Source: Nannocystales bacterium
GTDB taxonomy: Bacteria; Myxococcota_A; Polyangia; Nannocystales; Nannocystaceae
NCBI GenBank assembly: GCA_050633305.1
Contig: JBOEGF010000015.1
Span: 189,487-253,486 of the forward strand
Direction of reading: 5' to 3'
DNA length: 64,000 nucleotides
Shown here: positions 9,051-47,996 of the stretch, piece by piece
How positions within the stretch are numbered: position 1 is the first letter of the stretch
Layout of the letters: every line of letters begins with the position of its first letter
Made by a program: the position numbers and the translations under genes
The notes under the pieces: generated by a model
The model's input: the letters and a program-made list of their open reading frames with translations, nothing else
Databases searched by the model: none
What the model was told of the DNA's origin: nothing

Positions 9051-9809
9051 GTGGACATCGCGACCATCATCGGATTCGTAGCATCGGCAGTTCTCGTCGT
9101 CGGTACGATCGTACTCGGAGGTGAACTCGGTCCCTTCATCGACGTTCCAAGTCTTCTGATCGTCGTGGGGGGTACCGTTGCAGCGGCCCTCACGGCAGAG
9201 TCGCTGCCCTCCTGCATCGGCTCCATCAAGGTCGCGATCAACGTCTTCAAAGTGAAGGGAAACGACGCGACGGAGACGATTGCGAAGATCGCCGAGTTGT
9301 CCACCGTGGCGCGTCGCGAAGGTATCGTCGCGCTCGAGAATGCGAAGGTCGAAGACGAGTTCTTCGGCCGCGCGTTGCGAATGGCCGCCGACGGTGCCAA
9401 CGCTGACGAGATCAAGGCCACGCTCTCCGGCGAGATAGGGGCCATGAAGGCTCGTCACGAGCGTGGACAGAAGCTGTTCAAGTTCGTCGCGGCCAGTGCA
9501 CCTGCGATGGGCATGATCGGAACGCTGATCGGTCTGGTGCAGATGCTCCGGGCCCTCGACGACCCGGCCTCGATTGGCCCGGCCATGGCTGTTGCACTGT
9601 TGACGACGATGTATGGAGCCATCATCGCGTTCCAGATCGCAGGTCCGATCGCGACGAAGCTCGAGCACCGGAGCACCGAAGAGGCCACGCACATGGGCGT
9701 GGTGCTCGACGGTATCGGCGGCATCGTTCAAGGCTCCAACGCGCAGTCGATTCGCGACCGTCTCGAAGCCCGCTTGCCCCCAAGCCAGCGTCAGCAAGAC
9801 GCTGCCTAG
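9051..9809 (+). CDS. motA: Flagellar stator A subunit, PomA-like
   Basis: VDIATIIG, ARREGIVALE, APAMGMIGTLIGLV, IGPAMAVALLTTMYG. Confidence 0.92.
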   Translation: MDIATIIGFVASAVLVVGTIVLGGELGPFIDVPSLLIVVGGTVAAALTAESLPSCIGSIKVAINVFKVKGNDATETIAKIAELSTVARREGIVALENAKVEDEFFGRALRMAADGANADEIKATLSGEIGAMKARHERGQKLFKFVAASAPAMGMIGTLIGLVQMLRALDDPASIGPAMAVALLTTMYGAIIAFQIAGPIATKLEHRSTEEATHMGVVLDGIGGIVQGSNAQSIRDRLEARLPPSQRQQDAA

Positions 9810-9832
9810 CCCCAGCCTGAAGGGAGAGTGAC

Positions 9833-10675
9833 GTGGAAGAAGAAGAATGCGTATGCGAAGACAACAGCGGTGGCGAGTGGATGGCGACGTTTGCCGACCT
9901 CTCCATGCTGTTGCTGACCTTCTTCGTGCTTCTGCTCTCCTTCTCGAACATGGACGTGAAGCAGTTCCGAGAGATGCTCGGATCGGTTCAGGACGCGTTC
10001 GGTGTGCAGAAACAGATCGCCGGGTCGGTCGAGGCCATCGCTTCGTCGCCCGTCGAGCTGTCGATGGACCAAAACGACGGGGCAGGCTTCGCCTCGAAGC
10101 CGGGTGAACAAGCCACCGATCCGAACGCGGAGATGATGGCGAAAATCTCGCAGTACGTGGAGAACCAAGACCTCGAGGACGACGTCGAGATTTTCTCGAG
10201 CCCGAAGGGCGTGGTCGTCCGCGTCAAAGACGGAGCGCTCTACGGGTCAGGCAGCGCCGAGCTGGACGAGAACGCCAAGAAGGTTCTGGACAAGATTTCG
10301 GGGATCCACGGCAAGTTTGCCGACAGCATCCAGATCGAGGGCCATACAGACAACAGCCCGATGCGCTCGAAGAAGTACCCGTCGAACTGGGAGCTCTCCA
10401 CAGCCCGGGCCATTGCAGCGATGCACTACATGAGCGAGGAGGGCGGAATCGATGCCGGGAAGATCGGCGTCGCCGGGTACGCTGACTCGAAGCCGCTCGT
10501 GCCGAACGATACGGCCGAAGGCAGAAACAAGAACCGTCGCGTGGAGTTTGTGTTCTCCGCGAACGGCAAGAAGACCACGGTCACCGCGAACGACCAAGGC
10601 GTCACGGAGACCGAGTCATCCGACGATGACCCCGAGGGGCGGGCGTTCGCTCTCCCGATGAGTGCGTCCAAATGA
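9833..10675 (+). CDS. motB: Flagellar stator B subunit, PomB-like
   Basis: WMATFADLSMLLLTFFVLL TM with conserved Asp; OmpA-like GHTD, NWELS and NRRVE motifs. Confidence 0.92.
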   Translation: MEEEECVCEDNSGGEWMATFADLSMLLLTFFVLLLSFSNMDVKQFREMLGSVQDAFGVQKQIAGSVEAIASSPVELSMDQNDGAGFASKPGEQATDPNAEMMAKISQYVENQDLEDDVEIFSSPKGVVVRVKDGALYGSGSAELDENAKKVLDKISGIHGKFADSIQIEGHTDNSPMRSKKYPSNWELSTARAIAAMHYMSEEGGIDAGKIGVAGYADSKPLVPNDTAEGRNKNRRVEFVFSANGKKTTVTANDQGVTETESSDDDPEGRAFALPMSASK

Positions 10676-10732
10676 GAACCATCCCTACATCAACGACGTT
10701 CGGTGCCGCTGATGGAGGGCGGTCCTAGGCGC

Positions 10733-11554
10733 TTACAGGAGTGACAGCGCCATCGACGGGAGCTGGTTGGCTTGAGCCAACATCGCCGTACCCGCCTGCG
10801 ACATGATCTGGTTTCGGGTCAGCGCTGCGGTTTCACGCGCCACGTCGACGTCACGGATTCGCGAGTTCGCAGAGGTGAGGTTTTCTTCCTCGGTGCGAAG
10901 GTTCTGCACCGTGATCTCGAGGCGGTTCTGAGACGCACCCAGACCTGCGCGAGACGTCGACAGGGCGTCGATGGCTGTGTCGATGGTGCCCAGGGCCGTG
11001 GAGGCGCCTGCAGCCGTCGAGAGGTCCATGGCGTTGACACCCAGGGTGGTGGTGTCGGTCGCCGTGAACGCGACGTCGATCGTGTCGTTTGCGGTCGCAT
11101 CCTTACCCACCTGCATTGAGAACGTGCCGGCATCGCCGCCGAGCATGTTGAAGCCGTTGAACTCGCTGGCCTGCGAGATTCGCTGAACCTCGGCGACGAG
11201 CTGGTCATGCTCGGTGTCGATGAAGGCTCGCTCGTTGTCCGAGATAGCACCGTTGGCACTCTGCACCGCAAGCTCGCGGAGGCGGCCCATGATGTTTTGC
11301 TGCTCGTTCATCGCGCCTTCTGCGATCTGAATCATGGAGACGCCGTCGTTCGCGTTTCTCTCGGCCTGCCCGATACTGCGGATATCTGCTGTCATTCGTG
11401 AGGAGATTGCGAGGCCTGCGGCGTCGTCCGCGGCGCTGTTGATACGCATGCCGGAGCTCAGTCGAGTGATCGACTTTCCTAGCGCTCCTTGCGTCGCGGT
11501 GAGGTTGCGTTGCGCGCCCAAGGACGTCGCGTTGCTGATCATCGAAAAGGACAT
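10733..11554 (-). CDS. fliC: Flagellin 1 (273 aa, essentially D0/D1 only)
   Basis: RLSSGMRINSAADDAAG, RLRELAVQ, SRIRDVDVARE, QANQLP. Confidence 0.96.
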   Translation of the reverse strand: MSFSMISNATSLGAQRNLTATQGALGKSITRLSSGMRINSAADDAAGLAISSRMTADIRSIGQAERNANDGVSMIQIAEGAMNEQQNIMGRLRELAVQSANGAISDNERAFIDTEHDQLVAEVQRISQASEFNGFNMLGGDAGTFSMQVGKDATANDTIDVAFTATDTTTLGVNAMDLSTAAGASTALGTIDTAIDALSTSRAGLGASQNRLEITVQNLRTEEENLTSANSRIRDVDVARETAALTRNQIMSQAGTAMLAQANQLPSMALSLL

Positions 11555-11618
11555 GGTTTCTTCTTTCTGGGATGGGAGTGGGGTTGGGAATGGGCACCGA
11601 GGCGCCCTGTCGTTGATC

Positions 11619-11645
11619 CAATCGGCGAGAGGCTGGCCGCCTTTA
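11619..11645 (-). promoter_or_regulatory. Sigma28 promoter of flagellin 1
   Basis: TAAA-N15-GCCGATTG on the minus strand, about 65 nt upstream of the ATG. Confidence 0.85.
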
Positions 11646-11731
11646 GGGCCCGTCATGCCCGGCAATGGCCAACGCGGGACCTTGAGTCCCGAAGCGAGAC
11701 GGCAGGGCGCGCGCGGCTGTACCAAACCCCA

Positions 11732-11770
11732 GAAACAGAAAAACCCGGTGCCTCGAGAGGACACCGGGTT
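11732..11770 (-). terminator. Rho-independent terminator ending the flgB...flgE-LysM/MepA operon
   Basis: Minus-strand hairpin AACCCGGTG...CACCGGGTT followed by a T-rich tract. Confidence 0.8.
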
Positions 11771-11792
11771 CGGTTGAAGTGCGATTGTGGGC

Positions 11793-12791
11793 TCAGCGGG
11801 CGCGGACTGAACGGCAGTCCGTTTCGTCGATCCCACAACGAATTCGTATGTGGAGGTGGGCGTTGTGGCCCTTGGAGTGCGAGATCACCCGACCTATGCG
11901 GCCAAGCTCAGCGGGCGTCGCACCCATGTCCTTGGCCGCGGCGCGCAACATGCCGTGCAAGCGGCGGCTGAGGAAGATGACCTCGACGTCTCCGGTGTCG
12001 ATGAACGCACTGATGAGCGCCCACGTCGCGTGCCAGTCGGTCTGTGCGTGGTTGGGGTGGGCCCCGCTGCGGTCCAGCCGCGGCAAGCGAACGTCCAGGT
12101 CGCGACCCGATTGGTGCGACTTGTGGGGTGGAAAATGTCCGCCCTCAGCCTTGCTCATCGAGCCGATGGTCAACGTGCCATCCCAGCCGGTGTTGCGGCG
12201 GAAGTCCCCGATCGCCGTCACGACGACCGACACCGCATGGGTGCTGCCGTACGCCAGCTCGGGCTTCCAGATGTCGAACAGCTCGGTCTGCGGCAACGGG
12301 ATGCCGTTGACGAGCGTGCCGTCGTTCGGGCTGCCCGTGCTGAGGCCACCAAGCTGGAGATCCACGGCGGGAGCCACCTCGCCCTCGCGGCCTTCGTAGG
12401 GGTTCCAGCCAGATGACCCCAGGGGGCGAGGCACCACGACCCGCGTTCCGGGCGCGGCGCTCTTGGTGAGCTGCGTGCGCAGCTTGGCCGCGGGAACATC
12501 GAGCGAGCGCGCGATGCCTTCGACCGTGTCGCCTTCCTGCACGAAGTACACCGCGTTCATGCGCATGACGGGCCGAGCCTTGGCGCGGACCTGCATGACC
12601 CGCCCGGGCTTGATGCGACCGCTGCCGCTCCCCACCCAGGGGTTCCACTGCCGCACCTGAGCCTCCGATACACCCCAGCGCTTTGCGACCTTGGCGACGG
12701 TGTCTCCGCGTTCGACCTTGTGGGTCATCCAGCGGCCCTCGGCCTTGGGTGCCGCGAGCAGCGCGGCGGTGATCAGAAGTTGGTGCAGCAT
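11793..12791 (-). CDS. LysM-domain, MepA-like (penicillin-insensitive) murein endopeptidase
   Basis: Signal peptide, two LysM-like repeats (HKVERGDTV, YFVQEGDTV), GGHFPPHKSHQSGRDLD and HNAHLHIR Zn-site motifs. Confidence 0.85.
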   Translation of the reverse strand: MLHQLLITAALLAAPKAEGRWMTHKVERGDTVAKVAKRWGVSEAQVRQWNPWVGSGSGRIKPGRVMQVRAKARPVMRMNAVYFVQEGDTVEGIARSLDVPAAKLRTQLTKSAAPGTRVVVPRPLGSSGWNPYEGREGEVAPAVDLQLGGLSTGSPNDGTLVNGIPLPQTELFDIWKPELAYGSTHAVSVVVTAIGDFRRNTGWDGTLTIGSMSKAEGGHFPPHKSHQSGRDLDVRLPRLDRSGAHPNHAQTDWHATWALISAFIDTGDVEVIFLSRRLHGMLRAAAKDMGATPAELGRIGRVISHSKGHNAHLHIRIRCGIDETDCRSVRAR

Positions 12792-12798
12792 CAGGGTT

Positions 12799-14082
12799 CT
12801 ATCGCTTCAGGTTGTTCACTTCGGTGAGCATCTCGTCCGCAGTACTGATCGTGCGGGAGTTGGCTTGGAAGGCCCGCTGGTAGGCGATGAGCGTGACGAG
12901 CTCCTCCCCGAGGTCGACGTTGGAGCCCTCGAGGGCGCCCGAAGCGATGGAGCCGCGTCCCGACGTGCCGGCTTCGCCCAAGAGTGCTTGTCCGGAGTCT
13001 CGGGATGCGCTCCACAACTGGTCGCCTTCGCGGCGCAGGTTCTCCGGGGCGCGGAAGGTCGCGAGGGCGAGCTTGGCCAGCGGTTCGGTCTCGCCGTTGG
13101 AGTACAGCCCCGATACGGTGCCGTCCTCGGCGGTGATCACGTCGATCAAGTCTCCAGGTTCGCGCCCGTTTTGGTCGAAGGACTCCACGGCGGAGGCTCC
13201 AGCCACCATGCTCGAACCCGTGCCGGTGCCACCGTCGGTGGTGATCGCGTCGCCGAAGTCGAACTGAATCGCCTGCCCGGCGGTGGCGCCCAGGAAGTCT
13301 GCGGACGAGCCGTTCAACGTCTCGGTATCGAGGTTGCCGTCGGTGTCAAAACCGAGCGTTCCGTCGGCGATCTCCGTGAGGACCCCGGGGGTGCCGCCGT
13401 TGAGCTCGTCGCCCATCACCATCGCGTGCCATTCGAAGGCGCCGCCGCCGTTGTTCGTGAAGAACATCTGCACGTCATGCGCGTTGCCGAGCGAGTCGTA
13501 GACCGTCGCGCTGGTCTGGTAGTCCGACGTGTTCACGGGGTCGAGGGGGTCGAACGCGACGCCCGGGGTGTCGTCGGTGGGGCTGAGGTTGAGGTCCATG
13601 TTGGCGGTGGTCGTCGCGACCGGAGGCGACTGACCGCTGATCTCGATGTCCCCCACGCCGCCGGTGGGGTCGCCGTTCGCGTCGACCTGGTAGCCCTGCA
13701 CGCGAAGGCCGTCCTGGTTCACCATCATGCCCTCGTTGTTGAGGCTGAACCGACCGTTGCGGGTGTAGTAGCTGCCCTCGATGCCGTCGTTCTCGCCGAC
13801 GACCTCGAAGAATCCACCGCCTTGAATCGCGTAGTCGAGGCTGCCGCCGCTTTGAAGGAAGCTACCCTGCCCAAATCCCTGCGACACACTCCCCATCGTC
13901 ACGCCAGCACCGAGGTTCTGGCCCCCGTTGGTGCGCCGACCCAAGACGTCGTTGAAGTTGGCCGAACCGGACTTGAAGCCCACGGTCGAGACGTTTGCGA
14001 TGTTGTCACCGACGACGTTGATCGCGTCGCCGTGCGCGGTGAGGCCGCTGCGGCCCGTGTATAGAGAACTCCAGATGGACAT
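12799..14082 (-). CDS. flgE: Flagellar hook protein
   Basis: NIANVSTVGFK, YTRNGRF, VYDSLG, LEGSNVDL...YQRAFQAN. Confidence 0.95.
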   Translation of the reverse strand: MSIWSSLYTGRSGLTAHGDAINVVGDNIANVSTVGFKSGSANFNDVLGRRTNGGQNLGAGVTMGSVSQGFGQGSFLQSGGSLDYAIQGGGFFEVVGENDGIEGSYYTRNGRFSLNNEGMMVNQDGLRVQGYQVDANGDPTGGVGDIEISGQSPPVATTTANMDLNLSPTDDTPGVAFDPLDPVNTSDYQTSATVYDSLGNAHDVQMFFTNNGGGAFEWHAMVMGDELNGGTPGVLTEIADGTLGFDTDGNLDTETLNGSSADFLGATAGQAIQFDFGDAITTDGGTGTGSSMVAGASAVESFDQNGREPGDLIDVITAEDGTVSGLYSNGETEPLAKLALATFRAPENLRREGDQLWSASRDSGQALLGEAGTSGRGSIASGALEGSNVDLGEELVTLIAYQRAFQANSRTISTADEMLTEVNNLKR

Positions 14083-14115
14083 GGTCTTGTGACTCCTTGC
14101 TGTTTGGGGGGAGGG

Positions 14116-14796
14116 TTAGGCGTCCGGTTCGGAGACCGCGGTCAGAGAGAGAATCGAGCCGGGATCGAGCAGCAAAGAGCCGAATCCGAACATCGTGGCG
14201 CCGTCGTCAGTGAATTCGACCGAGCTCGCAACGCCAGAGATCGTCGCGCTGGCTCCAACCTCACCCTCGGTCTCGTGGGTTGCGATGATTTCTACGGTGT
14301 AGCTTCCGGGGGGAAGGGGCTCGCCGTTGCGGCCGGTCCCATCCCAACTGAAGGCACTCTCACCTTCTGAGCGTGACTCGAGGTCGATGCGCTTGACCTC
14401 CTCTCCGGTCTCGTCGTGGATCACGACTTCGACCGAGTCGGCAGCCCCGTCGAGGTTGAGCGTCAGGTCCATGGGTCCGCCGTCTTCTTTGAGACGGAAA
14501 CGAGAGAAGTCCGCGTCGATCGATTTTCCAACGAGGTCCATCATCGCTGCGCGCGATGACGACTGCCCGGACGCCTGCAGCCCTTCGAGGCGTTCGTTGG
14601 TCTCGAGGCCGAGTTCGATGTTGGTGAACTGGGCCAGCTGCGCGACGAACTCCGCCCCGTCTTGCGGGTTGAGCGGATCTTGATTCTGCATCTGTGCAAC
14701 GAGGAGCTTGAGAAACTCGTCTTGTTGCGTCTTGTTTTCTTCGGGCAGCTCGGGTGGCGAGTACAGGGGCCCGGTGTTGGTCTGTTCGATCTGCAT
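14116..14796 (-). CDS. flgD: Hook cap/assembly protein
   Basis: FLKLLVAQMQNQDPLNP, QLAQF, WDG. Confidence 0.95.
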   Translation of the reverse strand: MQIEQTNTGPLYSPPELPEENKTQQDEFLKLLVAQMQNQDPLNPQDGAEFVAQLAQFTNIELGLETNERLEGLQASGQSSSRAAMMDLVGKSIDADFSRFRLKEDGGPMDLTLNLDGAADSVEVVIHDETGEEVKRIDLESRSEGESAFSWDGTGRNGEPLPPGSYTVEIIATHETEGEVGASATISGVASSVEFTDDGATMFGFGSLLLDPGSILSLTAVSEPDA

Positions 14797-14815
14797 GACG
14801 TACCTCGTGCGGGGT

Positions 14816-16069
14816 TCAGGCCACGACCCGGAAGCCGGTGGGGATCACCCAGGTCTGGCGTCCGTCGTCCACAAAGCCCAAGTCGCGCTCACCCTGCTCG
14901 GGTGTTGGGACGATGCTCGGTGGCTGGCGCTGTTCGGGGTGCTCGGAGTCGTTGGGTGTGTCCGCGTCGGCGCCGTTGCCACCAAACGAGAGCTCGGTCA
15001 GCTCGAGGTCGTGTCGATCCAGTGCCTCGCGCAGGGCGTCGATGTCTCGCTGAATGGCATCGGTGAACCCGCCGACGGCGGTGGCTTCCACCATCACGTG
15101 TTTGCCGGCCGTGGTGATCGCGAGTTCGATCTGACCGTCTGCGGTGTCCACCGTAATCGCCGCGCGGTTGAGCGCGGTGCGAAGCACCTCCACGTTGCGG
15201 GCGACGGCGCCTTCGGGGTCGGCCGACGTGAACACGTTTCCGTCGGACCCGTACGAGGTCCCGGCGTCGTGTGAGACGGTCGGAACCGCGGAGAGGAAGG
15301 ATGAGGAGTGGTCGGGGCTCGCGGCCGGGCCGTCGAAGTCGGCGATGGGAGCAAAGTTGGCCGAGGCGTCCTCGACGGGGGCTGCGTCATCCTGAACGGT
15401 GAGAGCCATCTCGAACGCGCCGAGGGCATCGTCGAGGTCGACGAGAGGATCGGCATCGGGTTCGAGGGCTTCCCATCCCAGCTCCTGGACCAGAGGGAGT
15501 TCGCCCTCTTCGTCCTGGAACTCCATCTCCAGAGCGGTGGCGAGCATGACCTCCTCGGGAGGGGTCTGAACCAGCTCGGGATCGGGGCCTCGACTTTGTC
15601 CCCACGTGGGTGCGGGGGGCAGCCACGGGTCGTCGGAGTACGCCTGCGAGGACGGCACCGCCGGGGCTTCTTCTGGGGGAGCGTCGCCACCGAGGTCGGC
15701 GAACGTCGGGAAACGAACGAATGTGCCGCGAGTCTGCGCGTAGGGGAGAGTCTGGCGCTTGGCCGTCTCCGCTGGATCCTCGGCCTGTCCTTTCGGGGCG
15801 CGGAGCTTCATCTCAGCGATGACGGTTCCGGTGGGTCCCTTGAGGTCGTCGAGATTTCCGAACTCCGCGGGTGCAGCGTCGTATCGGGACCGCTTGCGCG
15901 GCGCTCGGCGAGCCTCGATGGTCGCCGCGGGCTTGGGTTTCGGTTTGGGCTCGGGCTGCGTCTCTCGGTCGAGGATCTCGGCGAAGCCGCCGCGGGCTTT
16001 CTTGCGGTTGACGTTTCGAGCGCGCGGAAGCACCGCGTCGGTTTTGGCCGCGAAGTTGGTCTTGGTCAT
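14816..16069 (-). CDS. fliK: Divergent hook-length control protein
   Basis: Position between fliJ and flgD; long Pro/acidic disordered region; weak FliK-C-like end (LREALDRHDL). Confidence 0.65.
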   Translation of the reverse strand: MTKTNFAAKTDAVLPRARNVNRKKARGGFAEILDRETQPEPKPKPKPAATIEARRAPRKRSRYDAAPAEFGNLDDLKGPTGTVIAEMKLRAPKGQAEDPAETAKRQTLPYAQTRGTFVRFPTFADLGGDAPPEEAPAVPSSQAYSDDPWLPPAPTWGQSRGPDPELVQTPPEEVMLATALEMEFQDEEGELPLVQELGWEALEPDADPLVDLDDALGAFEMALTVQDDAAPVEDASANFAPIADFDGPAASPDHSSSFLSAVPTVSHDAGTSYGSDGNVFTSADPEGAVARNVEVLRTALNRAAITVDTADGQIELAITTAGKHVMVEATAVGGFTDAIQRDIDALREALDRHDLELTELSFGGNGADADTPNDSEHPEQRQPPSIVPTPEQGERDLGFVDDGRQTWVIPTGFRVVA

Positions 16070-16518
16070 GAGTCCTCACTCTTCTTGAGCACGCTGAGGT
16101 CATCGGTGAGCGACTGCTCGAGTCGCTCCAGTGCGTGGCGTAGGCGTTTGCGATGGGTCAAGACCATCTGTTCGGCGGCGGAGAGGCGTGCATCACTTCC
16201 CCGCAGCGCCTCCACGGCTTGGTCTCGGTCAGCACGCTCGCGGTGGAGCGCCTTGCGTTGTTCTTCTGCGTACGCGGTCCGGTTGTTTCGTTTTTCGAGG
16301 GCGGCTTCGAAACTGGAGATCGAACTCCAGCGGGGCGAGCCTTCGCGAAATTCGGCGTCCTGGTCCTCGATGGCGCTCGTTGCAGCGGCAACCGCCTCGG
16401 TCTGGGCATGCACGCGTTGGTTGGCCTCGGCGACCTCCATCGTGGCCTTGCTCTGCTGGACGAGCCGGAGCCGAACGAGCTTCTTTGCGTTGCGTAGTTG
16501 GCGTCTGTTCTCGCTCAT
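16066..16518 (-). CDS. fliJ: FliJ-like coiled-coil export protein
   Basis: 150-aa coiled coil overlapping the end of fliI. Confidence 0.65.
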   Translation of the reverse strand: MSENRRQLRNAKKLVRLRLVQQSKATMEVAEANQRVHAQTEAVAAATSAIEDQDAEFREGSPRWSSISSFEAALEKRNNRTAYAEEQRKALHRERADRDQAVEALRGSDARLSAAEQMVLTHRKRLRHALERLEQSLTDDLSVLKKSEDS

Positions 16519-21335: not shown

Positions 21336-21361
21336 GAGTGATCAGGGGCGTGGTCTCGGCT

Positions 21362-21658
21362 CTACAGCGGGGTGTTCATCAGGTCGCGGTAGGCTTCGAC
21401 GGCCTTGTTCTTGAGCGTGACCGCGTAGCGCAGGGACACGTTGGCGCGCTCGGCTGCGATCATCATTTCGTGGATGCCCACCGTGGGGTCGCCCGCGGCG
21501 AAGCGCTCACCAAGGTCGTCCGCAGTCGCTTCTGCTTGGCGCGCGGAGTCGAGACTCTCGGTGAGGATGTTCGAGAAGTCCTCGTCGTCGGGGACAGCCT
21601 CGGTGTCGAACTTTGCTGCGGGGGGAAGCCCGCCGGGTCCTGAAACTGGATTGACCAT
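21362..21658 (-). CDS. fliE: Hook-basal body protein FliE
   Basis: HEMMIA...KNKAVEAYRDLM. Confidence 0.92.
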   Translation of the reverse strand: MVNPVSGPGGLPPAAKFDTEAVPDDEDFSNILTESLDSARQAEATADDLGERFAAGDPTVGIHEMMIAAERANVSLRYAVTLKNKAVEAYRDLMNTPL

Positions 21659-22095: not shown

Positions 22096-22112
22096 GGTGT
22101 GAACCCTTTCGG

Positions 22113-22508: not shown

Positions 22509-22545
22509 TGAGGAACCTGCTTGGTGCGGATCAGAGTTCAGTCAG

Positions 22546-22640: not shown

Positions 22641-22643
22641 GCT

Positions 22644-25917: not shown

Positions 25918-25933
25918 TGGCCCGGTGGTTGCA
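25918..25933 (+). promoter_or_regulatory. Sigma54 promoter of the fliM operon
   Basis: TGGCCCGgtggTTGCA, near-consensus -24/-12. Confidence 0.8.
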
Positions 25934-38571: not shown

Positions 38572-38611
38572 GCGCCCCACTCGGGGCTAGCAGTCCCAAA
38601 GGAGAGCAACC

Positions 38612-39397: not shown

Positions 39398-39405
39398 GAG
39401 CCATC

Positions 39406-40787: not shown

Positions 40788-40867
40788 GCGGGGCGCGCGT
40801 CGCGAGAGCGACGTCCCCAAGTAGTCCTGGATCGATCTAGAACGCGCCGTACAAACGAATTCAAGAC

Positions 40868-41992
40868 ATGCGTACCCGCCTCCATAGCCTGATGGCAGCC
40901 ATTGCTCTGACCGCCGCGACGCTCGGTCATGTCGAGCCCGCGAGCGCCTCACGCTTGAAGGAACTTGCCGACGTGGAGGGCTTTCGCGAGAACCCGCTGG
41001 TCGGCTACGGCATCGTGGTCGGTTTGCAGGGCACCGGAGACAACAGCTCCGACATCGCCACGCGTCAGTCGCTCTCGCGCCTGATGAACCACCTCGGCGT
41101 TCAGGTCGACGCGGACCAGATCAAGGCGAAGAACGTCGCGGCGGTCATCGTGACCGGGACGCTTCCTGCGTTCTCGAAGCCAGGCGCGAAGATCAACGTC
41201 ACGGTGTCCTCCATGGGGTCTGCCAAGAGCCTGCAGGGCGGAACGCTCATCGCGACGCCGCTCAAGGCGAGCAACGCCAAGACCTACGCCGTTGCCCAAG
41301 GCAGCCTGTCGCTCGGGGGCTTTGCCGTCAGTGGCAAGAGCGGTTCGGGCACCACCAAGAACCATCCGACGGTCGGAAAGATCCCAAGCGGAGGAGTTCT
41401 GGAACTCGCAGCGCCGGGTACGATGCCCAAGGAGAAGGTCGTCTTGCTGTTGCGCGAGGCCGACTTCACCACCGCGACGCGCACCGCCAAGGCTATCAAT
41501 GCTCGCATGGGCCTGCCCCTCGCCAAGGTGCGGGATGCGGGGACGGTCGAAGTGAAGATCAGCCCGACCTGGACCAAGCGGGTCTCGGCATTGGTCGCAA
41601 CGCTCGAGTCGGTTGAGGTCACTCCCGACGCGCCCGCGCGGATCGTCATTAACGAGCGAACGGGCACGGTTGTCGTTGGCTCTCACGTGACGATCTCCGA
41701 GGTCGCCATCGCCCACGGCGGAATCACCGTGCGGGTGAAGGAGAAGAAAGTCGTGTCCCAGCCCGACGCCGGTGTCATCGGAGGCGGGAGTGGAGACACC
41801 AAGGTTGTTCCAGACTCCGAGGTTGAGGTCGAGGAAAGCGAAGGCGAGCTGCATCTCCTCGAAGGCGCGGCCAACGTGGGCGACGTGGCATCCGCGCTCA
41901 ACAGCTTGGGTGTGAAGCCGCGCGACCTCGCGGCCATCTTTCAGGCCCTTCAAGCCGCGGGTGCACTGCGGGCGGAGATCAAGTTCCTGTGA
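40868..41992 (+). CDS. flgI: P-ring protein FlgI
   Basis: NPLVGYGIVVGLQGTGD, NVAAV, INERTGTVV. Confidence 0.96.
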   Translation: MRTRLHSLMAAIALTAATLGHVEPASASRLKELADVEGFRENPLVGYGIVVGLQGTGDNSSDIATRQSLSRLMNHLGVQVDADQIKAKNVAAVIVTGTLPAFSKPGAKINVTVSSMGSAKSLQGGTLIATPLKASNAKTYAVAQGSLSLGGFAVSGKSGSGTTKNHPTVGKIPSGGVLELAAPGTMPKEKVVLLLREADFTTATRTAKAINARMGLPLAKVRDAGTVEVKISPTWTKRVSALVATLESVEVTPDAPARIVINERTGTVVVGSHVTISEVAIAHGGITVRVKEKKVVSQPDAGVIGGGSGDTKVVPDSEVEVEESEGELHLLEGAANVGDVASALNSLGVKPRDLAAIFQALQAAGALRAEIKFL

Positions 41993-42366
41993 GCGCGAGC
42001 AGCCCGATCGGTGGCGGTTCTTCGGACCAAGCTGGTGCCGCGAAGGCGGCGCAGCAGCTCGAGGCCTACTTCCTGCGTCAGGTGCTGTCGAAGATGCCCA
42101 AGGGGGCGATGTTCGGTGGCGATGGCGCGGCAGCCTCCACGATGCACGGGATGTTTACCGAGGCGATTGCGGACGCGGTCGCACAGAGCGGTGACGTTGG
42201 ACTCGCCGCGGAGCTACAGAGTGCGATCGCGGGAGCAGAACCGACCCAGGTGCCGCCCCCTGCGAATGAACAAGACCCGATGGTGGTCGCCGATGAGATC
42301 GCGGCGGTCCGAGTGCGTGAAGTCGGATCCACGATCGAACCGGTAGAGAACGAAGGAGCAGAATGA
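41989..42366 (+). CDS. flgJ: Short FlgJ (rod-binding domain only)
   Basis: AAQQLEAYFLRQVLSKM...GLAAEL after flgI; no glucosaminidase domain. Confidence 0.75.
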   Translation: MSASSPIGGGSSDQAGAAKAAQQLEAYFLRQVLSKMPKGAMFGGDGAAASTMHGMFTEAIADAVAQSGDVGLAAELQSAIAGAEPTQVPPPANEQDPMVVADEIAAVRVREVGSTIEPVENEGAE

Positions 42367-42644
42367 AAGTTGTAGGACAACCCGTGCGCAATGACCTGCC
42401 GCTCGCGGCGGACGCAGAGCGCGTCAAGACCGCCCGAGCAGACAGTCCAGCGCGGACAGAAGCCGATAGCGTCAAGTTCTCGAGCTCAGCGAACGAGGCC
42501 GCGGTCTCGCTGTCTTCGGACGGCGCCGCTGCTTCGGAGCGGGTCGCTCGGATCAAGGCCGACATCGAGTCGGGCGGCTACCCGATCGACTTCGAAAAGC
42601 TCGCGGAGAAGATTCTCGACGACGAGCTGGGGCGTTTCCTGTGA
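42363..42644 (+). CDS. flgM: Anti-sigma28 factor
   Basis: DSVKFS...ERVARIKADIESGGYPID...AEKIL. Confidence 0.88.
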   Translation: MKVVGQPVRNDLPLAADAERVKTARADSPARTEADSVKFSSSANEAAVSLSSDGAAASERVARIKADIESGGYPIDFEKLAEKILDDELGRFL

Positions 42645-43021
42645 TCGAGGCACTTCGCGAGTTGCTCGACGGGTTGGGGGAGGTCCTCGACGCGGAGCGC
42701 AATGCAATCGCAGCGCTCGACCTCGCGTCCTTGGAGTTTCTCACCGCGGAGAAAACCCACCTCACGCAGTCCGTGGAGACTGAGTTGGTGCGGCCCGAGT
42801 TCCGCGATGACCCGACGCGGCGTCGTGAAGTGGCACGGGTGATTTCATCTCTGCGCCGCAAGGCCGCGGTCAACAGCATCTTGCTGCAGGATGCGCAGAG
42901 CATGTTGTCGCGGGTGCGTCCCGACGTCCCCGTGCGGCTCACCTACGACGCACGCGCCTGCAACGTCCGCGCTCGCGCGGCCAACGAGCAGGGCATGGCT
43001 CGAACGGGCGTCAATGACTAA
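42641..43021 (+). CDS. flgN: Export chaperone FlgN-like
   Basis: Helical 126-aa ORF between flgM and flgK. Confidence 0.7.
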   Translation: MIEALRELLDGLGEVLDAERNAIAALDLASLEFLTAEKTHLTQSVETELVRPEFRDDPTRRREVARVISSLRRKAAVNSILLQDAQSMLSRVRPDVPVRLTYDARACNVRARAANEQGMARTGVND

Positions 43022-44375
43022 CTTGTTCGGACTGTTGGGGCTCGGAGGTCGTGCCTACCAGGCGCACTCCGCAGGCGTCGCCACCATCGGCAACAACGTC
43101 TCCAACGTTTCGACCGAGGGTTATTCTCGGCAGCGAGTCGAACTGGGCGCTGACATTGTCCTGGGCGGCGTGCGGGCCGACGGCTCCTACCGCAGTGAGG
43201 ATCTCCTGTTGGCCTCGCGAGAGCGAGACAACGCGAGTTCGCTCGGGTTTGCGTCGTCGAGTACCAGCGCGCTGTTGGGCTTGGATGCGTCGCTGGCCGC
43301 AGGTGGCTCGGCGCTCCCCGAATCGATCTCAGCTTTCTTCGATGGCCTCAACGCGTTGCAAGCGTCCCCGCTTGACGGCGCGCGGATGCAAGACGTCGTG
43401 CAACGTGCACGGTCGATGGCGGAGGGATTCTCCGACGCCGCAACCGCGATCACGACCTCTGCCGAGAACGCTCAGTACAGGGCCGAGACGCTGGCCGGCG
43501 AGATCAACGAACTCTCCTCGACCATCGCCGCCGCAAACGAAACGCTCACGCTCTACGACAACCCTGGTGTTGCCGACCAGCGAGACCTCGCCGCGGCCCG
43601 CCTGGCGGAGCTTGTTGGGGGATCTGGGCGGATCGACCCCGACGGGAACATGCGCTTTGTTGCCAACGGCGGCGCAGTCCTCGTGGATGGCGACCGAACC
43701 CACCCGTTGAACGTGAGCTCGGTTCCCTCAGACCCGACGTCGATCACCGTCACGGTTGGCTCGGGCCCCTCGGCTCGAGATGTGACCACGGAGATCGGAG
43801 CCGGCCAACTCGGGGCGGAGATCGAGTTCATCACAGGTACGGTCGGCGCCACGATGACCCAGCTCGACGAGTTGGCCTTTGACTTCGCCACCGCCGTCAA
43901 CGGGATTCACACCGCCGGTCAAGCCGCAGACGGCACCACCGGGTTGGCGGTGTTCGACATCCCTCTGGGTCCGGGGGGGGCCGCCGCGGCGATCTCCGTC
44001 AACCAGGTCCTCCAGGATGACCCCTCGCTGCTTGCGACTGCAACCCTCGGTGAGCCGGCTGGCGACATCGGCGGCATCACGAGTCTTCTCGCGCTTCGAG
44101 AAGGGTTGACCGCCGCGGGTGGAACACGAACCGCGACCGACGAGGCGATCAACATTCTCTCCGGCGTTGGGCGACTGGCCAACGACGCTCAGGCTTCTGA
44201 GAGCCTCCACCGTGCTCGAGGCGAGATGCTCGACGCTCAGCGAGACGCACTGTCTGGCGTGAGCATCGAAGAGGAGATGCTCCGCCTCTCCGAGTTCCAG
44301 CGCGCCGCAGAGGCTGCGTCGACTTACGTTTCGACGATCGACCAGATGCTCTCCAACCTGCTCGCAACGCTCTAA
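43014..44375 (+). CDS. flgK: Hook-filament junction protein FlgK
   Basis: NNVSNVSTEGYSRQRV, DQRD, SGVSIEEEM..FQRA. Confidence 0.93.
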   Translation: MTNLFGLLGLGGRAYQAHSAGVATIGNNVSNVSTEGYSRQRVELGADIVLGGVRADGSYRSEDLLLASRERDNASSLGFASSSTSALLGLDASLAAGGSALPESISAFFDGLNALQASPLDGARMQDVVQRARSMAEGFSDAATAITTSAENAQYRAETLAGEINELSSTIAAANETLTLYDNPGVADQRDLAAARLAELVGGSGRIDPDGNMRFVANGGAVLVDGDRTHPLNVSSVPSDPTSITVTVGSGPSARDVTTEIGAGQLGAEIEFITGTVGATMTQLDELAFDFATAVNGIHTAGQAADGTTGLAVFDIPLGPGGAAAAISVNQVLQDDPSLLATATLGEPAGDIGGITSLLALREGLTAAGGTRTATDEAINILSGVGRLANDAQASESLHRARGEMLDAQRDALSGVSIEEEMLRLSEFQRAAEAASTYVSTIDQMLSNLLATL

Positions 44376-44398
44376 GCCGACCGCACGAAAGGAACACC

Positions 44399-45277
44399 AT
44401 GCGCATCACCGAAACCCGAATGCTGCGGCTGATGAGCAGCCGGACGATGGATACGCAGAACTCCATCGCAAAGGCTGGCACTCAGGTCACGACGGGGGTG
44501 GAGGTCCAGCGACCGTCCGATGACCCCGTTCGCTGGGCTGACGGCATGCGGACAAAGCTGAGCATGGACCGGCGGGACATGCATGAGTCCACTGTCGAAC
44601 GGGCACGAGACAACCTGACCCGAGTCGATGCCGCGCTCGGCGACTTGGTCGACGGAATGGGCCGGGTTCGGGAGTTGGCGATGCTCGGCGCAAGTGAGAG
44701 CTACGACGCCTCGGGCCGGACCGCAGCCGCGATCGAGATTGGGACGCTTTTCGACAGTATGCTCGCTTCGGCGAACGTGCGTTCGATCGACGGGGAGTAT
44801 CTCCTTGCAGGGTCGAACAGCGATGTCCCTCCGTTCGATGCTGCTGGCGTCTACACCGGGAATGACATCTCGAGAACGCTCGAGACCAGCGAGGGCACCT
44901 TCAAACAGGTCGGGGTGACCGGCACGGTTCTCACGGCCGCCGAAGGCGTGGACGTTTTCGGAACGATATCGGGGTTGCAGGCCGCTCTGGCGGCCAACGA
45001 CCCGGTTGCCGTACGAGGTTTCCTCGACAACGACCTCGCGGAGGCCCTCGAGCAGTTGGCCTACGCGCAAGTCGAGACCGGGGTGACGTCCAACTCGTTG
45101 GACGAGAGCCTCGGCATGCTCGACGACCTCGAAGTCTCTTTGACACAGTCCTTTGAAGGTTCCATCGGCGCGGACCCGATCGAGGCAGCAACGTGGCTTG
45201 CAAACTTGAGCAACGAGCTCGAAGCGAGCCGCGTCGTTTCGGAACGGATCGTCTCTCTCATGTCCTTAGGCGGCTGA
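44399..45277 (+). CDS. flgL: Hook-filament junction protein FlgL
   Basis: MRIT, RPSDDP, GEYLLAG. Confidence 0.9.
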   Translation: MRITETRMLRLMSSRTMDTQNSIAKAGTQVTTGVEVQRPSDDPVRWADGMRTKLSMDRRDMHESTVERARDNLTRVDAALGDLVDGMGRVRELAMLGASESYDASGRTAAAIEIGTLFDSMLASANVRSIDGEYLLAGSNSDVPPFDAAGVYTGNDISRTLETSEGTFKQVGVTGTVLTAAEGVDVFGTISGLQAALAANDPVAVRGFLDNDLAEALEQLAYAQVETGVTSNSLDESLGMLDDLEVSLTQSFEGSIGADPIEAATWLANLSNELEASRVVSERIVSLMSLGG

Positions 45278-45292
45278 AGCAACCCCGGGGGG

Positions 45293-45319
45293 TAAACCAA
45301 GTTCGGGTTGGACCGAATC
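45293..45319 (+). promoter_or_regulatory. Sigma28-like promoter of flagellin 2
   Basis: TAAA-N15-ACCGAATC upstream of the flagellin ATG. Confidence 0.7.
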
Positions 45320-45394
45320 TCCCTGTGAAGCCGGAACGAATCGTCCGGCACCGAAACCGACCCCCCCAACATCCCCCAACAAGAGGAACGCAAG

Positions 45395-46222
45395 ATGACC
45401 TTCTCGATGATCAGCAACGCCACCAGCCTTGGCGCTCAAAAGAACTTCATGATGACCCAGAAGAACCTGGGTAAGTCGATTGGCCGACTGAGCTCCGGCC
45501 TGCGGATTCAGAGCGCGGCCGACGACGCCGCCGGGATGGGCATTTCCTCGGTCATGACGGCCGACATCCGCAGCGTTGGTCAGGCCGAGCGAAACGCGAA
45601 CGACGCCATCTCGATGATTCAGATCGCCGAGGGTGCGATGAACGAGCAGCAGAACATCATGGGTCGCCTCCGAGAGCTGGCCGTCCAAAGCGCCAACGGT
45701 GCTCTCTCGAACAACGAGCGTGCCTTCATCGATGTTGAGCAGACGCAGCTGGTCGCGGAGATCGACCGTATCTCGAGCGTCAGTGAATTCAACAGCTTCA
45801 ACATGCTCGGTGGCGACGCCGGCACGTTTGCCATGCAGGTTGGCAAGGACGCCGTCGCGGGTGTCGACACCGTCGACATCACGTTCGCGGCGACTGACTC
45901 CGCCACGCTGGGCGTCAACGCCATGGACTTCACCACTGCCGCGGGTGCACAGACGGCCCTGGGCACCATCGACACCGCCATCGCGAGTTTGTCGACTGGT
46001 CGTGCCAACCTTGGTGCGTCGCAGAACCGGCTGGAGATCACGGTCTCGAACCTCCGGGTGGAGGAAGAGAACCTCACCTCTGCGAACGCTCGGATTCGAG
46101 ATGTGGACGTGGCCCGTGAAACGGCGTCGCTGACACGAGCTCAAATCATGTCGCAGGCTGGTACCGCAATGCTCGCGCAGGCCAACCAGCTTCCGCAGTC
46201 GGCACTCCAGCTCCTCGGGTAA
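45395..46222 (+). CDS. fliC: Flagellin 2 (275 aa)
   Basis: Close paralogue of flagellin 1; long identical blocks such as MIQIAEGAMNEQQNIMGRLRELAVQSANGA. Confidence 0.96.
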   Translation: MTFSMISNATSLGAQKNFMMTQKNLGKSIGRLSSGLRIQSAADDAAGMGISSVMTADIRSVGQAERNANDAISMIQIAEGAMNEQQNIMGRLRELAVQSANGALSNNERAFIDVEQTQLVAEIDRISSVSEFNSFNMLGGDAGTFAMQVGKDAVAGVDTVDITFAATDSATLGVNAMDFTTAAGAQTALGTIDTAIASLSTGRANLGASQNRLEITVSNLRVEEENLTSANARIRDVDVARETASLTRAQIMSQAGTAMLAQANQLPQSALQLLG

Positions 46223-46242
46223 CCCCCACCGGTCGGTTTCTA

Positions 46243-46283
46243 GGCGCCACCTCTCCCCCGGGGTGGCGCCACCTTCCATTTTT
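46243..46283 (+). terminator. Probable terminator/stabilising hairpin after flagellin 2
   Basis: GGCGCCACC...GGTGGCGCC stem followed, after a short gap, by ATTTTT. Confidence 0.6.
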
Positions 46284-46307
46284 CCAACACAAGGTTTCTA
46301 ACGCACC

Positions 46308-47618
46308 ATGGGCATCAGCTTCGGCGGACTCTCTACCGGACTCGACACAGCGGCACTCATCGACGCCTTCGTCGGCATCGAGGACGCTCGCGCCGGGGCG
46401 CTCGAGGCCGAACAGGCCGCGACACGCCAGCAGCAGGCCGTCGTCAAAGACATTTCCGAAGCGGTCGAAGCTCTCGCCGAAGCGGCTGAGGGCCTGGATA
46501 CCGCGGACGAAATCCGGGTACTCAGCGCGACGTCAACGAGTGACCAGATCAAGGTCACCGGAAGCAGCGACGCGCTCCAGGGCGTCTACGATATCTCAGT
46601 CACCAACCTCGCCCGCGCTGAGACGAGCCGGTCGTTTGGCTTTGCCGACGACGCGGCCGGAGTGCTGGGCGGCGCTGGAACACTCTCGATTACCTCGGGA
46701 GCGGACACGGTCGATGTTGCGTACGACGACACGATGTCCCTGTCCGACGTGGCGCAAGCGATCAACGACTCCGACGCAGAGGTGTCGGCGTCGGTGCTCT
46801 TCGACGGCACCGTGCACCGATTGCAGGTGACCTCCCAGGAGACCGGCCTCGCCAACGCGTTGTCGTTCACGGACTCTGGCGGGCTTACCGGCCTGGATGC
46901 AGTCGCGGCCGAAGTCGTGTCCGCTGAAGACGCCGAGTTCACCATCGCGGGGACCACGGTCACTCGCTCGTCCAACGTTGTCGATGATGCGATCGCCGGG
47001 GTGACGCTCGAGCTTCTCGCCGAGGGCGTGACCGATGCTCGCATCGATGTGAAAGCCGATCCCGAGGCCATCACCGAGAAGATGCAGGGCTACGTCGACG
47101 CGCTCAACGCGGTCACGAGCCAGATCCAACGCCAGCTGAACCTCGTGGGCGACTCGGCTCCCGAAGGCTCGCTGTTTGGCGACCGGACCCTCCAGATGTT
47201 GCAACGCGACATCAACAGCATCACCTCGGGATTCTTCGGCCCCGACAATGCCCGGCTTGCCGATTTTGGACTCGAGGTCAATCAACAAGGCGAGTTCGAC
47301 TTCGACGCCGAAGCCTTTACGGCAGCGGTCGCAGGTGGGACCGAAGACCTCGAGAATCTCTTCGTCGGAGACACGGGTCTGCAAGCTGCCTTCGTAGACC
47401 TGAGCGATCGTTATACCGACTCGATCGACGGGGTGCTCTCGGTCAAGGACGACGCGCTCCAGGATCTTGTCGACCGCCTCGACGACCGGATCACGAGAAT
47501 CGACGACGGTGCCGCGCGACTGAGAGATCGTCTGACTTCGCAGTTCACGAACCTCGAGGAACGCATCGCCGAAATTAACGCACAAGGCAGCCAACTGTTG
47601 GCCTTCTTGGGAATCTAG
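46308..47618 (+). CDS. fliD: Filament cap protein
   Basis: ISFGGLSTGLDT, VTRSSNVVDDAIAGVTL, C-terminal QFTNLE coiled coil. Confidence 0.93.
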   Translation: MGISFGGLSTGLDTAALIDAFVGIEDARAGALEAEQAATRQQQAVVKDISEAVEALAEAAEGLDTADEIRVLSATSTSDQIKVTGSSDALQGVYDISVTNLARAETSRSFGFADDAAGVLGGAGTLSITSGADTVDVAYDDTMSLSDVAQAINDSDAEVSASVLFDGTVHRLQVTSQETGLANALSFTDSGGLTGLDAVAAEVVSAEDAEFTIAGTTVTRSSNVVDDAIAGVTLELLAEGVTDARIDVKADPEAITEKMQGYVDALNAVTSQIQRQLNLVGDSAPEGSLFGDRTLQMLQRDINSITSGFFGPDNARLADFGLEVNQQGEFDFDAEAFTAAVAGGTEDLENLFVGDTGLQAAFVDLSDRYTDSIDGVLSVKDDALQDLVDRLDDRITRIDDGAARLRDRLTSQFTNLEERIAEINAQGSQLLAFLGI

Positions 47619-47624
47619 ACCGCC

Positions 47625-47996
47625 ATGTATCAAGCACGCGCGAACGCATACAAGACCGTAGGGGTCCAATCCGCTTCCCCGCAGCGAATCCTCGACGAGG
47701 TATTCCAACGGATTGAGCTGGATTGCCAACGAGCGATCACTGCGATTGAGAGCAACGACGTGAAGGCGCGCTGCGAGCAGCTCAGTCACGCGATCAAATT
47801 GATCGGGGCGCTCGAGGTCAGCCTCGACAGCGAACTCGCCCCCGAGCTTTGCGAAAACCTCATCGGGCTCTACGGCTACATCCGGGCCCGACTCGTGGAC
47901 GCAAACCTCAAGCCCGCAGTAGAGCCAGTGCAAGAGGCGATGGATCTGGTCCGCGAAGTGCACAGCTCGTTTCAAGCAGCGCAGAAGGCAGCGTAG
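47625..47996 (+). CDS. fliS: Flagellin chaperone
   Basis: AY...VQSASP, SLD...NLIGLYGYI..RLVDAN. Confidence 0.92.
   Translation: MYQARANAYKTVGVQSASPQRILDEVFQRIELDCQRAITAIESNDVKARCEQLSHAIKLIGALEVSLDSELAPELCENLIGLYGYIRARLVDANLKPAVEPVQEAMDLVREVHSSFQAAQKAA

Follow-up and report, generated by a model that had tools for sequence, protein, structure and literature searches.

Textbook myxobacteria move on surfaces only. Does the chromosome of a member of the Nannocystaceae (Myxococcota, Polyangia) encode a complete flagellum, is this flagellum maintained, and how did its genes come to reside there? These questions are raised by a 64,000-nt stretch of DNA, G000:C15:189487-253486 (hereafter, the window), on a 265-kb contig of the genome G000, a metagenome-type assembly of 11.0 Mb in 90 contigs (estimated completeness 92%, contamination 1%). 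In the window, 44 consecutive genes at positions 9039-47996 (39 kb) form a flagellar cluster. We read this cluster as a flagellar gene set that is intact, is maintained by selection and resides in the chromosome of a Nannocystaceae genus not yet in culture, and assign a rough probability of 0.8 to this reading in its wider form, which includes the history of the cluster proposed below.

Because the window is evenly GC-rich (0.605-0.667 per 2-kb step) and yields 272 open reading frames of at least 100 amino acids, genes were called with a codon-score script, which gave 68 window genes, and their products were scanned with Pfam and NCBIfam models at curated cut-offs. Every frame of the cluster is open, many neighbours overlap by 4 bases, and the genes form three transcription blocks (Table 1). 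A flagellar assignment was obtained for 42 of the 44 genes; the remaining two encode an M74/LysM peptidase and a lipoprotein. A sequence-only reading of this DNA had described a complete and intact flagellar gene set, and this description holds, with most assignments over the curated cut-offs. The export gate is complete: FlhA, FlhB, FliP, FliR and FliO are over the Pfam cut-offs, as is FliQ with Bac_export_3 (TIGR01402 is below, 77.8 vs 88.9). FlhA reaches 800.9 bits with the flagellar model TIGR01398 (cut-off 772.1) and stays below the cut-off of the non-flagellar SctV model (563 vs 692), and FliP reaches 241.5 with TIGR01103 (cut-off 217.45). The ATPase complex is present, with FliI and FliH over the Pfam cut-offs and a sub-threshold FliJ at the expected position. 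In the rod, ring and hook set, FliE, FlgB, FlgC, FlgF, FlgG, FlgA, FlgH, FlgI, FlgD and FlgE are over cut-off and only FliK is below. The hook-filament junction, filament, cap and chaperone are present (FlgK, FlgL, two flagellins, FliD and FliS, all over cut-off), and FliF, FliG and FliN of the MS ring and switch are clear. Two MotA/MotB pairs, FliL, FlhF, a MinD/ParA-type FlhG, FliA and FlgM are likewise over cut-off.

To gauge maintenance, ratios of nonsynonymous to synonymous substitution rates (dN/dS) were estimated against G006, an independent assembly from the same genus. For 41 cluster genes the ratios lie in the range of 0.07 to 0.26 (median 0.148, maximum 0.264); the median for 13 flanking genes is 0.189. 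These estimates show purifying selection on every part of the predicted machine, including the filament, cap and stators, so that the dN/dS check proposed along with the sequence-only reading speaks for genes kept by selection. The dS values, which are rough estimates, are of the same order in the cluster (0.64-2.49) and in the flanks (0.70-1.44), and this similarity fits a cluster and flanks that have diverged together from the time the G000 and G006 species split.

Intact genes need not mean swimming: the apparatus might act solely in secretion, adhesion or sensing, or the genes might stay silent in nature. Cultured Nannocystaceae are not known to be flagellated, and literature searches found no such report; moreover, swimming of Anaeromyxobacter dehalogenans 2CP-C is described as 'not commonly observed' despite its flagellar cluster (PMC2330069). 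In the present cluster, however, the filament, cap, hook-filament junction, stators, FliL and FlhF/FlhG are under purifying selection like the export core, and a secretion-only role is disfavoured because it would not require keeping the filament, cap, junction and stators. A seamount study adds that flagellins are highly expressed in marine metagenome-assembled genomes (MAGs) of Myxococcota and Bdellovibrionota (PMC11937823). We consider a cluster without swimming quite improbable. The swimming-capable lineage proposed in the sequence-only reading is a well-founded expectation from gene content, and this large-genome lineage of Nannocystaceae can very probably also swim.

The weaker assignments concern five proteins. 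The candidates for FliK (PF02120, 21.8 bits vs cut-off 29.8), FliJ (PF02050, 18.7 bits vs 28.4), FlgJ (rod-binding part only, 22.6 vs 25.1) and FlgN (22.3 vs 30.5) owe their names to position. The FliM candidate (306 amino acids, encoded before fliN) has a FliMN_C domain over the cut-off and a weak end-to-end match to TIGR01397 (24.6 vs 219.6 bits); its N-terminus, LTGDEREALR, resembles the CheY-binding motif. The predicted FlgJ, of 125 amino acids, is a rod-binding protein only and lacks a hydrolase domain. A separate partner that opens the cell wall for the flagellum may be the LysM plus M74/MepA-like peptidase, whose gene heads the flgE operon. FliO consists of a signal peptide, a periplasmic N-terminal part of about 110 amino acids, an Ala/Pro-rich linker, a transmembrane segment with the FliO core (229-307) and an acidic tail. 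Some Myxococcota FliO proteins bear AMIN or LysM domains (PMC12248157); a Pfam scan found neither in the FliO of the window. A third flagellin is encoded outside the window (G000:C16:125951-126343, plus strand; Flagellin_N, 118 bits). The lipoprotein between flhB and flhA, with its visible Ser/Thr/Gly (S/T/G) linker and cysteine-rich repeat (23 bits vs cut-off 20.8), occupies this place only in G000: in G006 and in G014, a genome of another genus of the family, flhA directly follows flhB, and in the same-genus genomes G001 and G002 no window gene occurs within 10 kb upstream of flhA, the cluster being broken at this very point.

Table 1. Features of the window (positions counted from its first nucleotide; cut-offs are the curated ones)
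Feature	Position	Strand	Evidence or remark
VWA lipoprotein	2078-3304	+	CglB model only 57.6 bits vs cut-off 200
Variable segment	6265-53065		46.8 kb; holds flagellar cluster and flanking genes
HDOD-GGDEF gene	6509-7912	+	inside variable segment
HDOD-HD gene	8024-8923	-	inside variable segment
Block 1: motA, motB		+	
Block 2: motA2, motB2, fliL, sigma54 activator, flgB, flgC, fliE, fliF, fliG, fliH, fliI, fliJ, fliK, flgD, flgE, LysM/M74 peptidase, fliC1	from 25766 backwards	-	
Block 3: fliM, fliN, fliO, fliP, fliQ, fliR, flhB, lipoprotein, flhA, flhF, flhG, fliA, flgF, flgG, flgA, flgH, flgI, flgJ, flgM, flgN, flgK, flgL, fliC2, fliD, fliS	from 25947	+	
motA	9039-9809	+	stator pair 1; Pfam MotA_ExbB, MotB_plug, OmpA over cut-off in the pair
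motB	9833-10675	+	stator pair 1
fliC1	10733-11554	-	flagellin, 273 aa; Flagellin_N, Flagellin_C
LysM + M74/MepA-like peptidase	11793-12791	-	Pfam LysM 45.3 bits, Peptidase_M74 44.5 bits; heads hook operon
flgE	12799-14082	-	Pfam/NCBIfam
flgD	14116-14796	-	Pfam/NCBIfam
probable fliK	14816-16069	-	sub-cut-off
probable fliJ	16066-16518	-	4-base overlap
fliI	16515-17834	-	4-base overlaps
fliH	17831-18556	-	4-base overlap
fliG	18553-19644	-	Pfam/NCBIfam
fliF	19641-21335	-	Pfam/NCBIfam
fliE	21362-21658	-	Pfam/NCBIfam
flgC	21658-22095	-	TIGR01395 156.7 bits
flgB	22113-22508	-	Pfam match; TIGR01396 57.3 bits vs cut-off 59.05
sigma54 activator	22644-23636	-	330 aa, AAA+ plus HTH_8; Pfam Sigma54_activat at residues 22-187
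fliL	23759-24247	-	
motB2	24244-24996	-	stator pair 2
motA2	24993-25766	-	stator pair 2
probable fliM	25947-26867	+	
fliN	26884-27243	+	
fliO	27240-28430	+	396 aa
fliP	28435-29169	+	
fliQ	29124-29480	+	
fliR	29477-30217	+	
flhB	30251-31309	+	
Lipoprotein	31560-32888	+	between flhB and flhA; S/T/G linker, one cysteine-rich repeat, PQQ_2-type propeller
flhA	33107-35224	+	
flhF	35221-36273	+	
flhG	36270-37154	+	
fliA	37151/37208-37870	+	
flgF, flgG, flgA, flgH	from 37867	+	
flgI	40868-41992	+	
flgJ	41989-42366	+	rod-binding
flgM	42384-42644	+	
probable flgN	42641-43021	+	
flgK	43014-44375	+	
flgL	44399-45277	+	
fliC2	45395-46222	+	
fliD	46308-47618	+	
fliS	47625-47996	+	
Right part of variable segment	48196-53035	-	repeat protein, two unknowns, HDOD gene, pentapeptide-repeat/ion-channel gene, unknown 254-aa gene
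Cysteine-rich repeat protein	48196-49005	-	TIGR02232 63.8 bits
Lone HDOD gene	50385-51212	-	
Pentapeptide repeats fused to two-transmembrane ion channel	51212-52141	-	Ion_trans_2
CarD/CdnL	61202-61693		Pfam/NCBIfam
PepA	61808-63304		Pfam/NCBIfam

Does the cluster belong to a myxobacterial chromosome at all? Genome-based grouping assigns G000, together with G001, to genus g1 within family f1 (Nannocystaceae), to which G014 also belongs; the FlhA proteins of G001 and G014 are 95% and 73-74% identical to that of G000, respectively. A tree of RpoB was built from 36 rows chosen among the 61 genomes with an rpoB match (G005 and G036, without a match, were left out); it recovers the family with support 100 against four class outgroups and, inside it, the genus with support 100. 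MYXO-CTERM and the cysteine-rich repeat TIGR02232 are lineage-restricted. The genome has 45 MYXO-CTERM matches over the cut-off on many contigs, two of them on the contig of the window, compared to none in 14 control genomes, and the repeat occurs in two window genes. The host had been taken for a Nannocystaceae-like organism from its flanking genes, and the grouping, the RpoB placement and the MYXO-CTERM matches bear this out; the flanking features cited at the time are present as well, namely cysteine-rich repeats (one of them within the cluster), an S/T/G-linker lipoprotein, the VWA lipoprotein, CdnL and PepA.

A metagenome-type assembly in 90 contigs invites the suspicion of a binning or assembly artefact, with the contig or the cluster coming from another organism of the community, and the tetranucleotide profile of the cluster is indeed the most deviant among the 39-kb chunks tested (see below). 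Against this suspicion, the estimated contamination is 1%, the cluster lies inside a 265-kb contig bearing MYXO-CTERM genes, and both of its flanks are orthologous and collinear with those of non-flagellate genomes of the same genus. The full arrangement recurs in G006, in which one 219-kb contig is collinear with window genes g01-g62, and its right half recurs in G001 and G002, which share flhA to fliS (G002 also shares the right flank). In the non-flagellate G005, g04-g06 and g59-g60 lie on one contig with order and orientation kept. A chimera, the outcome that the sequence-only reading had asked to be checked, is very unlikely because G006 is collinear throughout and both flanks are shared with G005 on one contig; an artefact of any kind seems to us barely credible. 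A search of public sequencing runs with positions 38000-47996 listed one DNA run (share of words 0.43), which may be the source sample, and no RNA run. The contigs of the DNA run on positions 1-20000 are 155 short low-depth records that together reach every one of the 30 bins; 50 of the records have an identity of 99% or higher. None of them forms a useful bridge of the left border, and they are neutral on the assembly.

With the contig taken as sound, comparison within the genus defines a variable segment that holds the cluster and flanking genes. FlhA and FlgI are present in four of the seven genus genomes (G000, G001, G002 and G006) and were not found in G003 (84% complete), G004 (90%, 40 contigs) and G005 (72%). 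The place of the segment is taken in G005 by unrelated genes spanning about 12.4 kb (G005:C1:9800-22200); they encode proteins of 1214, 666, 641, 235, 423 and 311 amino acids, none with an orthologue at the G000 locus. The same filler adjoins the right-flank genes in G003 (contig C38), and still other genes adjoin g59 in G004. Orthologues of the HDOD-GGDEF and HDOD-HD genes of the segment are lacking in the non-flagellate species of the genus (G003-G005 in the case of HDOD-GGDEF). Three HDOD-domain genes surround the cluster (a GGDEF fusion, an HD fusion and one alone), and all three belong to the stretch that the non-flagellate species lack. The RpoB tree has G003 as the sister of all other genus members and leaves G004 in a polytomy with G006 and a clade of G000, G001 and G002. 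Since G000 and G006 share the locus, loss of the cluster is the simplest account for G004 at least; a loss is not directly demonstrable, because tblastn (E<=1e-3) found no flagellar remnant in the filler DNA of G003, G004 and G005. The marks of a mobile genomic island were not found: no integrase or transposase family is over the Pfam cut-off among the called window genes, the window has no tRNA to act as a target, and the longest word shared between the two borders, in a search for att-like direct repeats, is 15 nt. The corresponding statement of the sequence-only reading, that no integrase, transposase or tRNA boundary is visible, agrees with these scans.

The history of the cluster beyond the genus was addressed with a tree of 43 FlhA rows, chosen among the genomes with FlhA matches and computed with IQ-TREE (careful search, LG+G4). 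The family contributes 14 rows and 15 other families of the class contribute 25; four Armatimonadota rows serve as the outgroup. This tree splits the family in two. Genera g5, g6, g8, g10 and g16 form a nine-row clade (support 100/100), and g1 together with g9 (100/100) is nested in a clade of 19 rows (100/100) that also contains families f8, f10, f19, f80, f83, f88 and f90, and in which G495 and G650 are sister to g1+g9 (98/93). A single clade of the 14 family rows is rejected by the approximately unbiased (AU) test (log-likelihood difference 145.5, p-AU 0.0002). In the RpoB tree, by contrast, a clade of 14 rows unites g1 and g9 with g10, a genus of the other flagellar type. The identities of FlgI, FlgG and FlgH to the G000 proteins follow the same order as those of FlhA: 77, 77 and 67% for G014, 59, 66 and 55% for G030 from another family, and 47-52, 54-58 and 38-42% for the other genera of the family. 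Among the 120 best FlhA homologues in a global protein search, the 12 from named organisms all have myxobacterial or 'Deltaproteobacteria' labels (Myxococcota 3, Kofleriaceae 4, Myxococcales 2, Haliangiales 1, 'Deltaproteobacteria bacterium' 2). By these comparisons, the cluster genes are shown to represent a flagellar lineage shared with Haliangiales- and Kofleriaceae-labelled relatives and distinct from that of the remaining Nannocystaceae genera with flagellar genes. We take this lineage to be native to Polyangia. That FlhA groups with Haliangiales- and Kofleriaceae-labelled homologues and not with the other flagellated Nannocystaceae suggests a transfer that is old and took place within the class; the cluster would have entered the ancestor of g1 (and g9), to be inherited vertically thereafter and lost or replaced in some species.

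A purely vertical history would instead start from a flagellated ancestor of Polyangia or of Nannocystaceae and involve many independent losses, with the conflict of the FlhA tree due to rate differences or hidden paralogy. To our knowledge, FlgI, the P-ring protein, is not found in non-flagellar secretion systems. By this marker and by flagellar-grade FlhA (E<=1e-150), flagellar genes are widespread, as a vertical history would have it: FlhA of this grade was detected in 141 of the 400 genomes (72 of 162 genera) of a class sample, and FlgI in 166 of the 401 genomes (127 of 255 genera) of a phylum sample. Within the family, FlgI is present in 24 of 72 genomes and 7 of 17 genera, including 17 of the 42 genomes with a completeness of 90% or more and a contamination of 5% or less; it was not found in three genera with large few-contig genomes (0 of 11 in g17, 0 of 11 in g14, 0 of 6 in g15), which may be the cultured ones. 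The composition of the cluster, which is close to native, and the lack of mobile-element genes, tRNA or flanking repeats longer than 15 nt also favour vertical descent, and vertical retention was argued for Anaeromyxobacter by Thomas et al. (PMC2330069). The AU test, the supported nesting of g1+g9 with other families (99/96 and 98/93) and the identity order repeated in three further genes stand against it. Furthermore, none of the 141 FlhA-positive genomes has two FlhA matches at E<=1e-150, so the sample offers no living example of a long coexistence of two flagellar systems. We regard a purely vertical history as unlikely and prefer the old transfer within the class.

The composition of the cluster is in keeping with a long residence. 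By eye it resembles the flanks, as had been noted from the sequence; measurably, it is slightly off. The GC content is 0.646 compared to 0.659 for the genome, and the tetranucleotide correlation to the genome (0.9859) is below that of all 277 random 39-kb chunks (mean 0.9944, standard deviation 0.0020). At third codon positions, GC (GC3) is 0.785 in 43 cluster genes vs 0.800 in 2007 others, and at second positions (GC2) 0.469 vs 0.486. We considered this deviation as a sign of recent transfer and rejected it because GC2, which reflects amino-acid make-up, shifts as much as GC3. The long residence proposed in the sequence-only reading stands within the genus, where locus and dS match the flanks between G000 and G006; it does not stand without qualification, given that the segment is replaced in three of seven genus members and that FlhA nests among other families.

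Several points weigh against the interpretation advanced here. On the side of the machine, the cluster is known from genes alone and the organism is uncultured; the assignments of FliM, FliK, FliJ, FlgN and FlgJ combine sub-threshold matches with position; and promoter motifs (see below) occur no more often than expected by chance. On the side of history, the case for transfer consists of one full tree (FlhA) plus identity rankings, and the species tree is a quick single-gene RpoB tree with polytomies. The group submitted to the AU test was taken from taxonomy codes, but was named only after the tree had been seen. The FlhA outgroup comes from Armatimonadota only, and an origin of the 'type A' lineage outside Myxococcota is judged unlikely only from homologue labels. 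The absences in G003 and G005 come from incomplete genomes, though the locus itself is assembled there, and near-native composition fits old transfer and vertical descent alike.

If the genes act as their families suggest, on which the following scheme is based throughout, the type III export apparatus (FlhA/B, FliOPQR, FliHIJ) would build the MS and C rings, the rod, the P and L rings, the hook and a filament composed of as many as three flagellins. The flagellum would be of the outer-membrane-spanning, Gram-negative kind, because P and L rings are encoded. FlhF and FlhG probably set a polar position and a low flagellum number; the polar flagellation foreseen in the sequence-only reading is a fair expectation from the presence of these two genes. 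Transcription probably proceeds from the sigma54 activator, in which Pfam detects no receiver or sensor domain, to FliA/FlgM (sigma28). The promoters reported earlier are retained in part: candidate sites lie at fitting intergenic positions, a sigma28-like one at 11619-11645 upstream of fliC1, a sigma54-like one at 25918-25932 upstream of fliM and another of this type, seen by eye, upstream of flgB, but motif counts in the window are no higher than in shuffled sequence (sigma54, 5 vs 4.04 expected; sigma28, 2 vs 0.73 expected, a count attained in 16 of 100 shuffles). Because the consensus counts are not above chance, only individual positions are kept, as candidates. The sole perfect TGGCAC-N5-TTGC in the window (49985-49999, minus strand) is just upstream of an unknown 172-amino-acid gene (49451-49969, minus strand), which is followed by an unknown 151-amino-acid gene and the cysteine-rich repeat protein gene. 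These three genes may form a sigma54-driven accessory operon of the flagellar regulon.

The best NCBIfam models for stator pair 1 are PomA and the PRK08944 MotB family, both below cut-off (NF006527, 252 vs 341 bits), and those for pair 2 are MotD and PRK09109, also below. Ion specificity is not readable because every stator model match is below its cut-off; the PomAB-like and MotCD-like pairs may each suit a different load or ion, which would point to stator exchange governed by either. Through the HDOD/GGDEF genes that accompany the cluster, the flagellum is probably linked to cyclic di-GMP signalling. Elsewhere, the genome has three CheA-type genes, and a PilM_2 match of 218 bits suggests that type IV pili are also present. 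Of the gliding machinery, CglB (NF033757) gave eight weak genome matches, none over the cut-off (best 36.8 vs 200 bits); Agl/Glt genes were not searched for. A second FHIPEP/SctV-type gene (G000:C5:280772-282511, plus strand), a paralogue found in nearly all relatives, flagellate or not, presumably belongs to the non-flagellar type III system familiar from myxobacteria.

The sequence-only reading had implied that a flagellum in such a host is a surprise. This part fails because flagella are known and common in the phylum: in addition to the 166 sampled genomes with FlgI, flagella or swimming have been published for Anaeromyxobacter and Persicimonas caeni (see below). The tallies correct the textbook picture, with FlgI in about one third of the species genomes of the family and about four tenths of the sampled phylum genomes. 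The present cluster is a well-documented case with both borders defined; it adds to a known kind and represents no new type of system. New here are the 46.8-kb replaceable segment and the two flagellar lineages within Nannocystaceae: literature on Myxococcota MAGs, as far as listings and passages show, yielded no replaceable locus and no two flagellar lineages within one family, and literature searches, judged by titles, openings of abstracts and selected passages, found no published flagellar genes for Nannocystaceae, Plesiocystis, Enhygromyxa or Kofleriaceae. Tentatively, and with somewhat more doubt than belief, we entertain a broader possibility, namely that a swimming module is swapped in and out of 'gliding' myxobacteria, that the two flagellar lineages of Nannocystaceae are unrelated, and that this genus acquired its cluster from a Haliangiales-like relative as a package of about 47 kb with its own HDOD/GGDEF regulators, placed at a chromosomal replacement hot spot at which sister species have other cargo. 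If true and general, this would mean that flagellar motility in Polyangia is no relic but an accessory trait that members of the class exchange. The genus offers a presence/absence series for the gain and loss of a 40-kb machine, and those who would culture its members might look in liquid phases and expect motile cells.

Polar flagella with FlhF/FlhG, a sigma54-to-sigma28 cascade and dual stators are found in Vibrio, Pseudomonas and Shewanella. The cluster described here resembles theirs in that genes for FlhF and a MinD-type FlhG directly follow flhA and precede fliA, and in its intra-cluster sigma54 activator, its FliA and FlgM, and its PomAB-like and MotCD-like stator pairs. It differs in that the activator lacks both a receiver domain and an N-terminal domain of the FleQ type, in that FliO is 396 amino acids long with a long periplasmic N-terminal part, and in that all stator models are below cut-off.

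Anaeromyxobacter belongs to a different class, not to Polyangia. In A. dehalogenans 2CP-C, as in G000, a single large flagellar cluster is present in a genome of the myxobacterial phylum (55.7 kb there, 39 kb here), and swimming was observed in the sister strain K (Thomas et al. 2008, PMC2330069). The 2CP-C genome also has surface-motility genes, and its authors weigh retention against acquisition; fliJ, flgN, fliT, flgA, flgJ and fliK are reported missing (PMC2330069). Compared by description, G000 differs from 2CP-C in having a clear flgA and weak candidates for fliJ, flgN, flgJ and fliK. Persicimonas caeni YN101T (Bradymonadales) has flagella by electron microscopy, motility 'by flagella and gliding' and a genome with flhA, flhB, flhF, fliR, fliN, motAB and flgH (PMC7188933); unlike the host of the window, with which it is compared by description, it is cultured and belongs to the class Bradymonadia, now in Myxococcota. 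Flagellar assembly genes were also described in Myxococcota MAGs by Murphy et al. (bioRxiv 10.1101/2021.07.06.451402), and a 2026 preprint that mapped flagellar genes across GTDB counts Myxococcota as a 'motile' phylum (bioRxiv 10.64898/2026.06.16.732483). The closest homologues found for the FlhA described here are NCBI proteins already named FlhA, from MAGs of Myxococcota, Haliangiales and Kofleriaceae.

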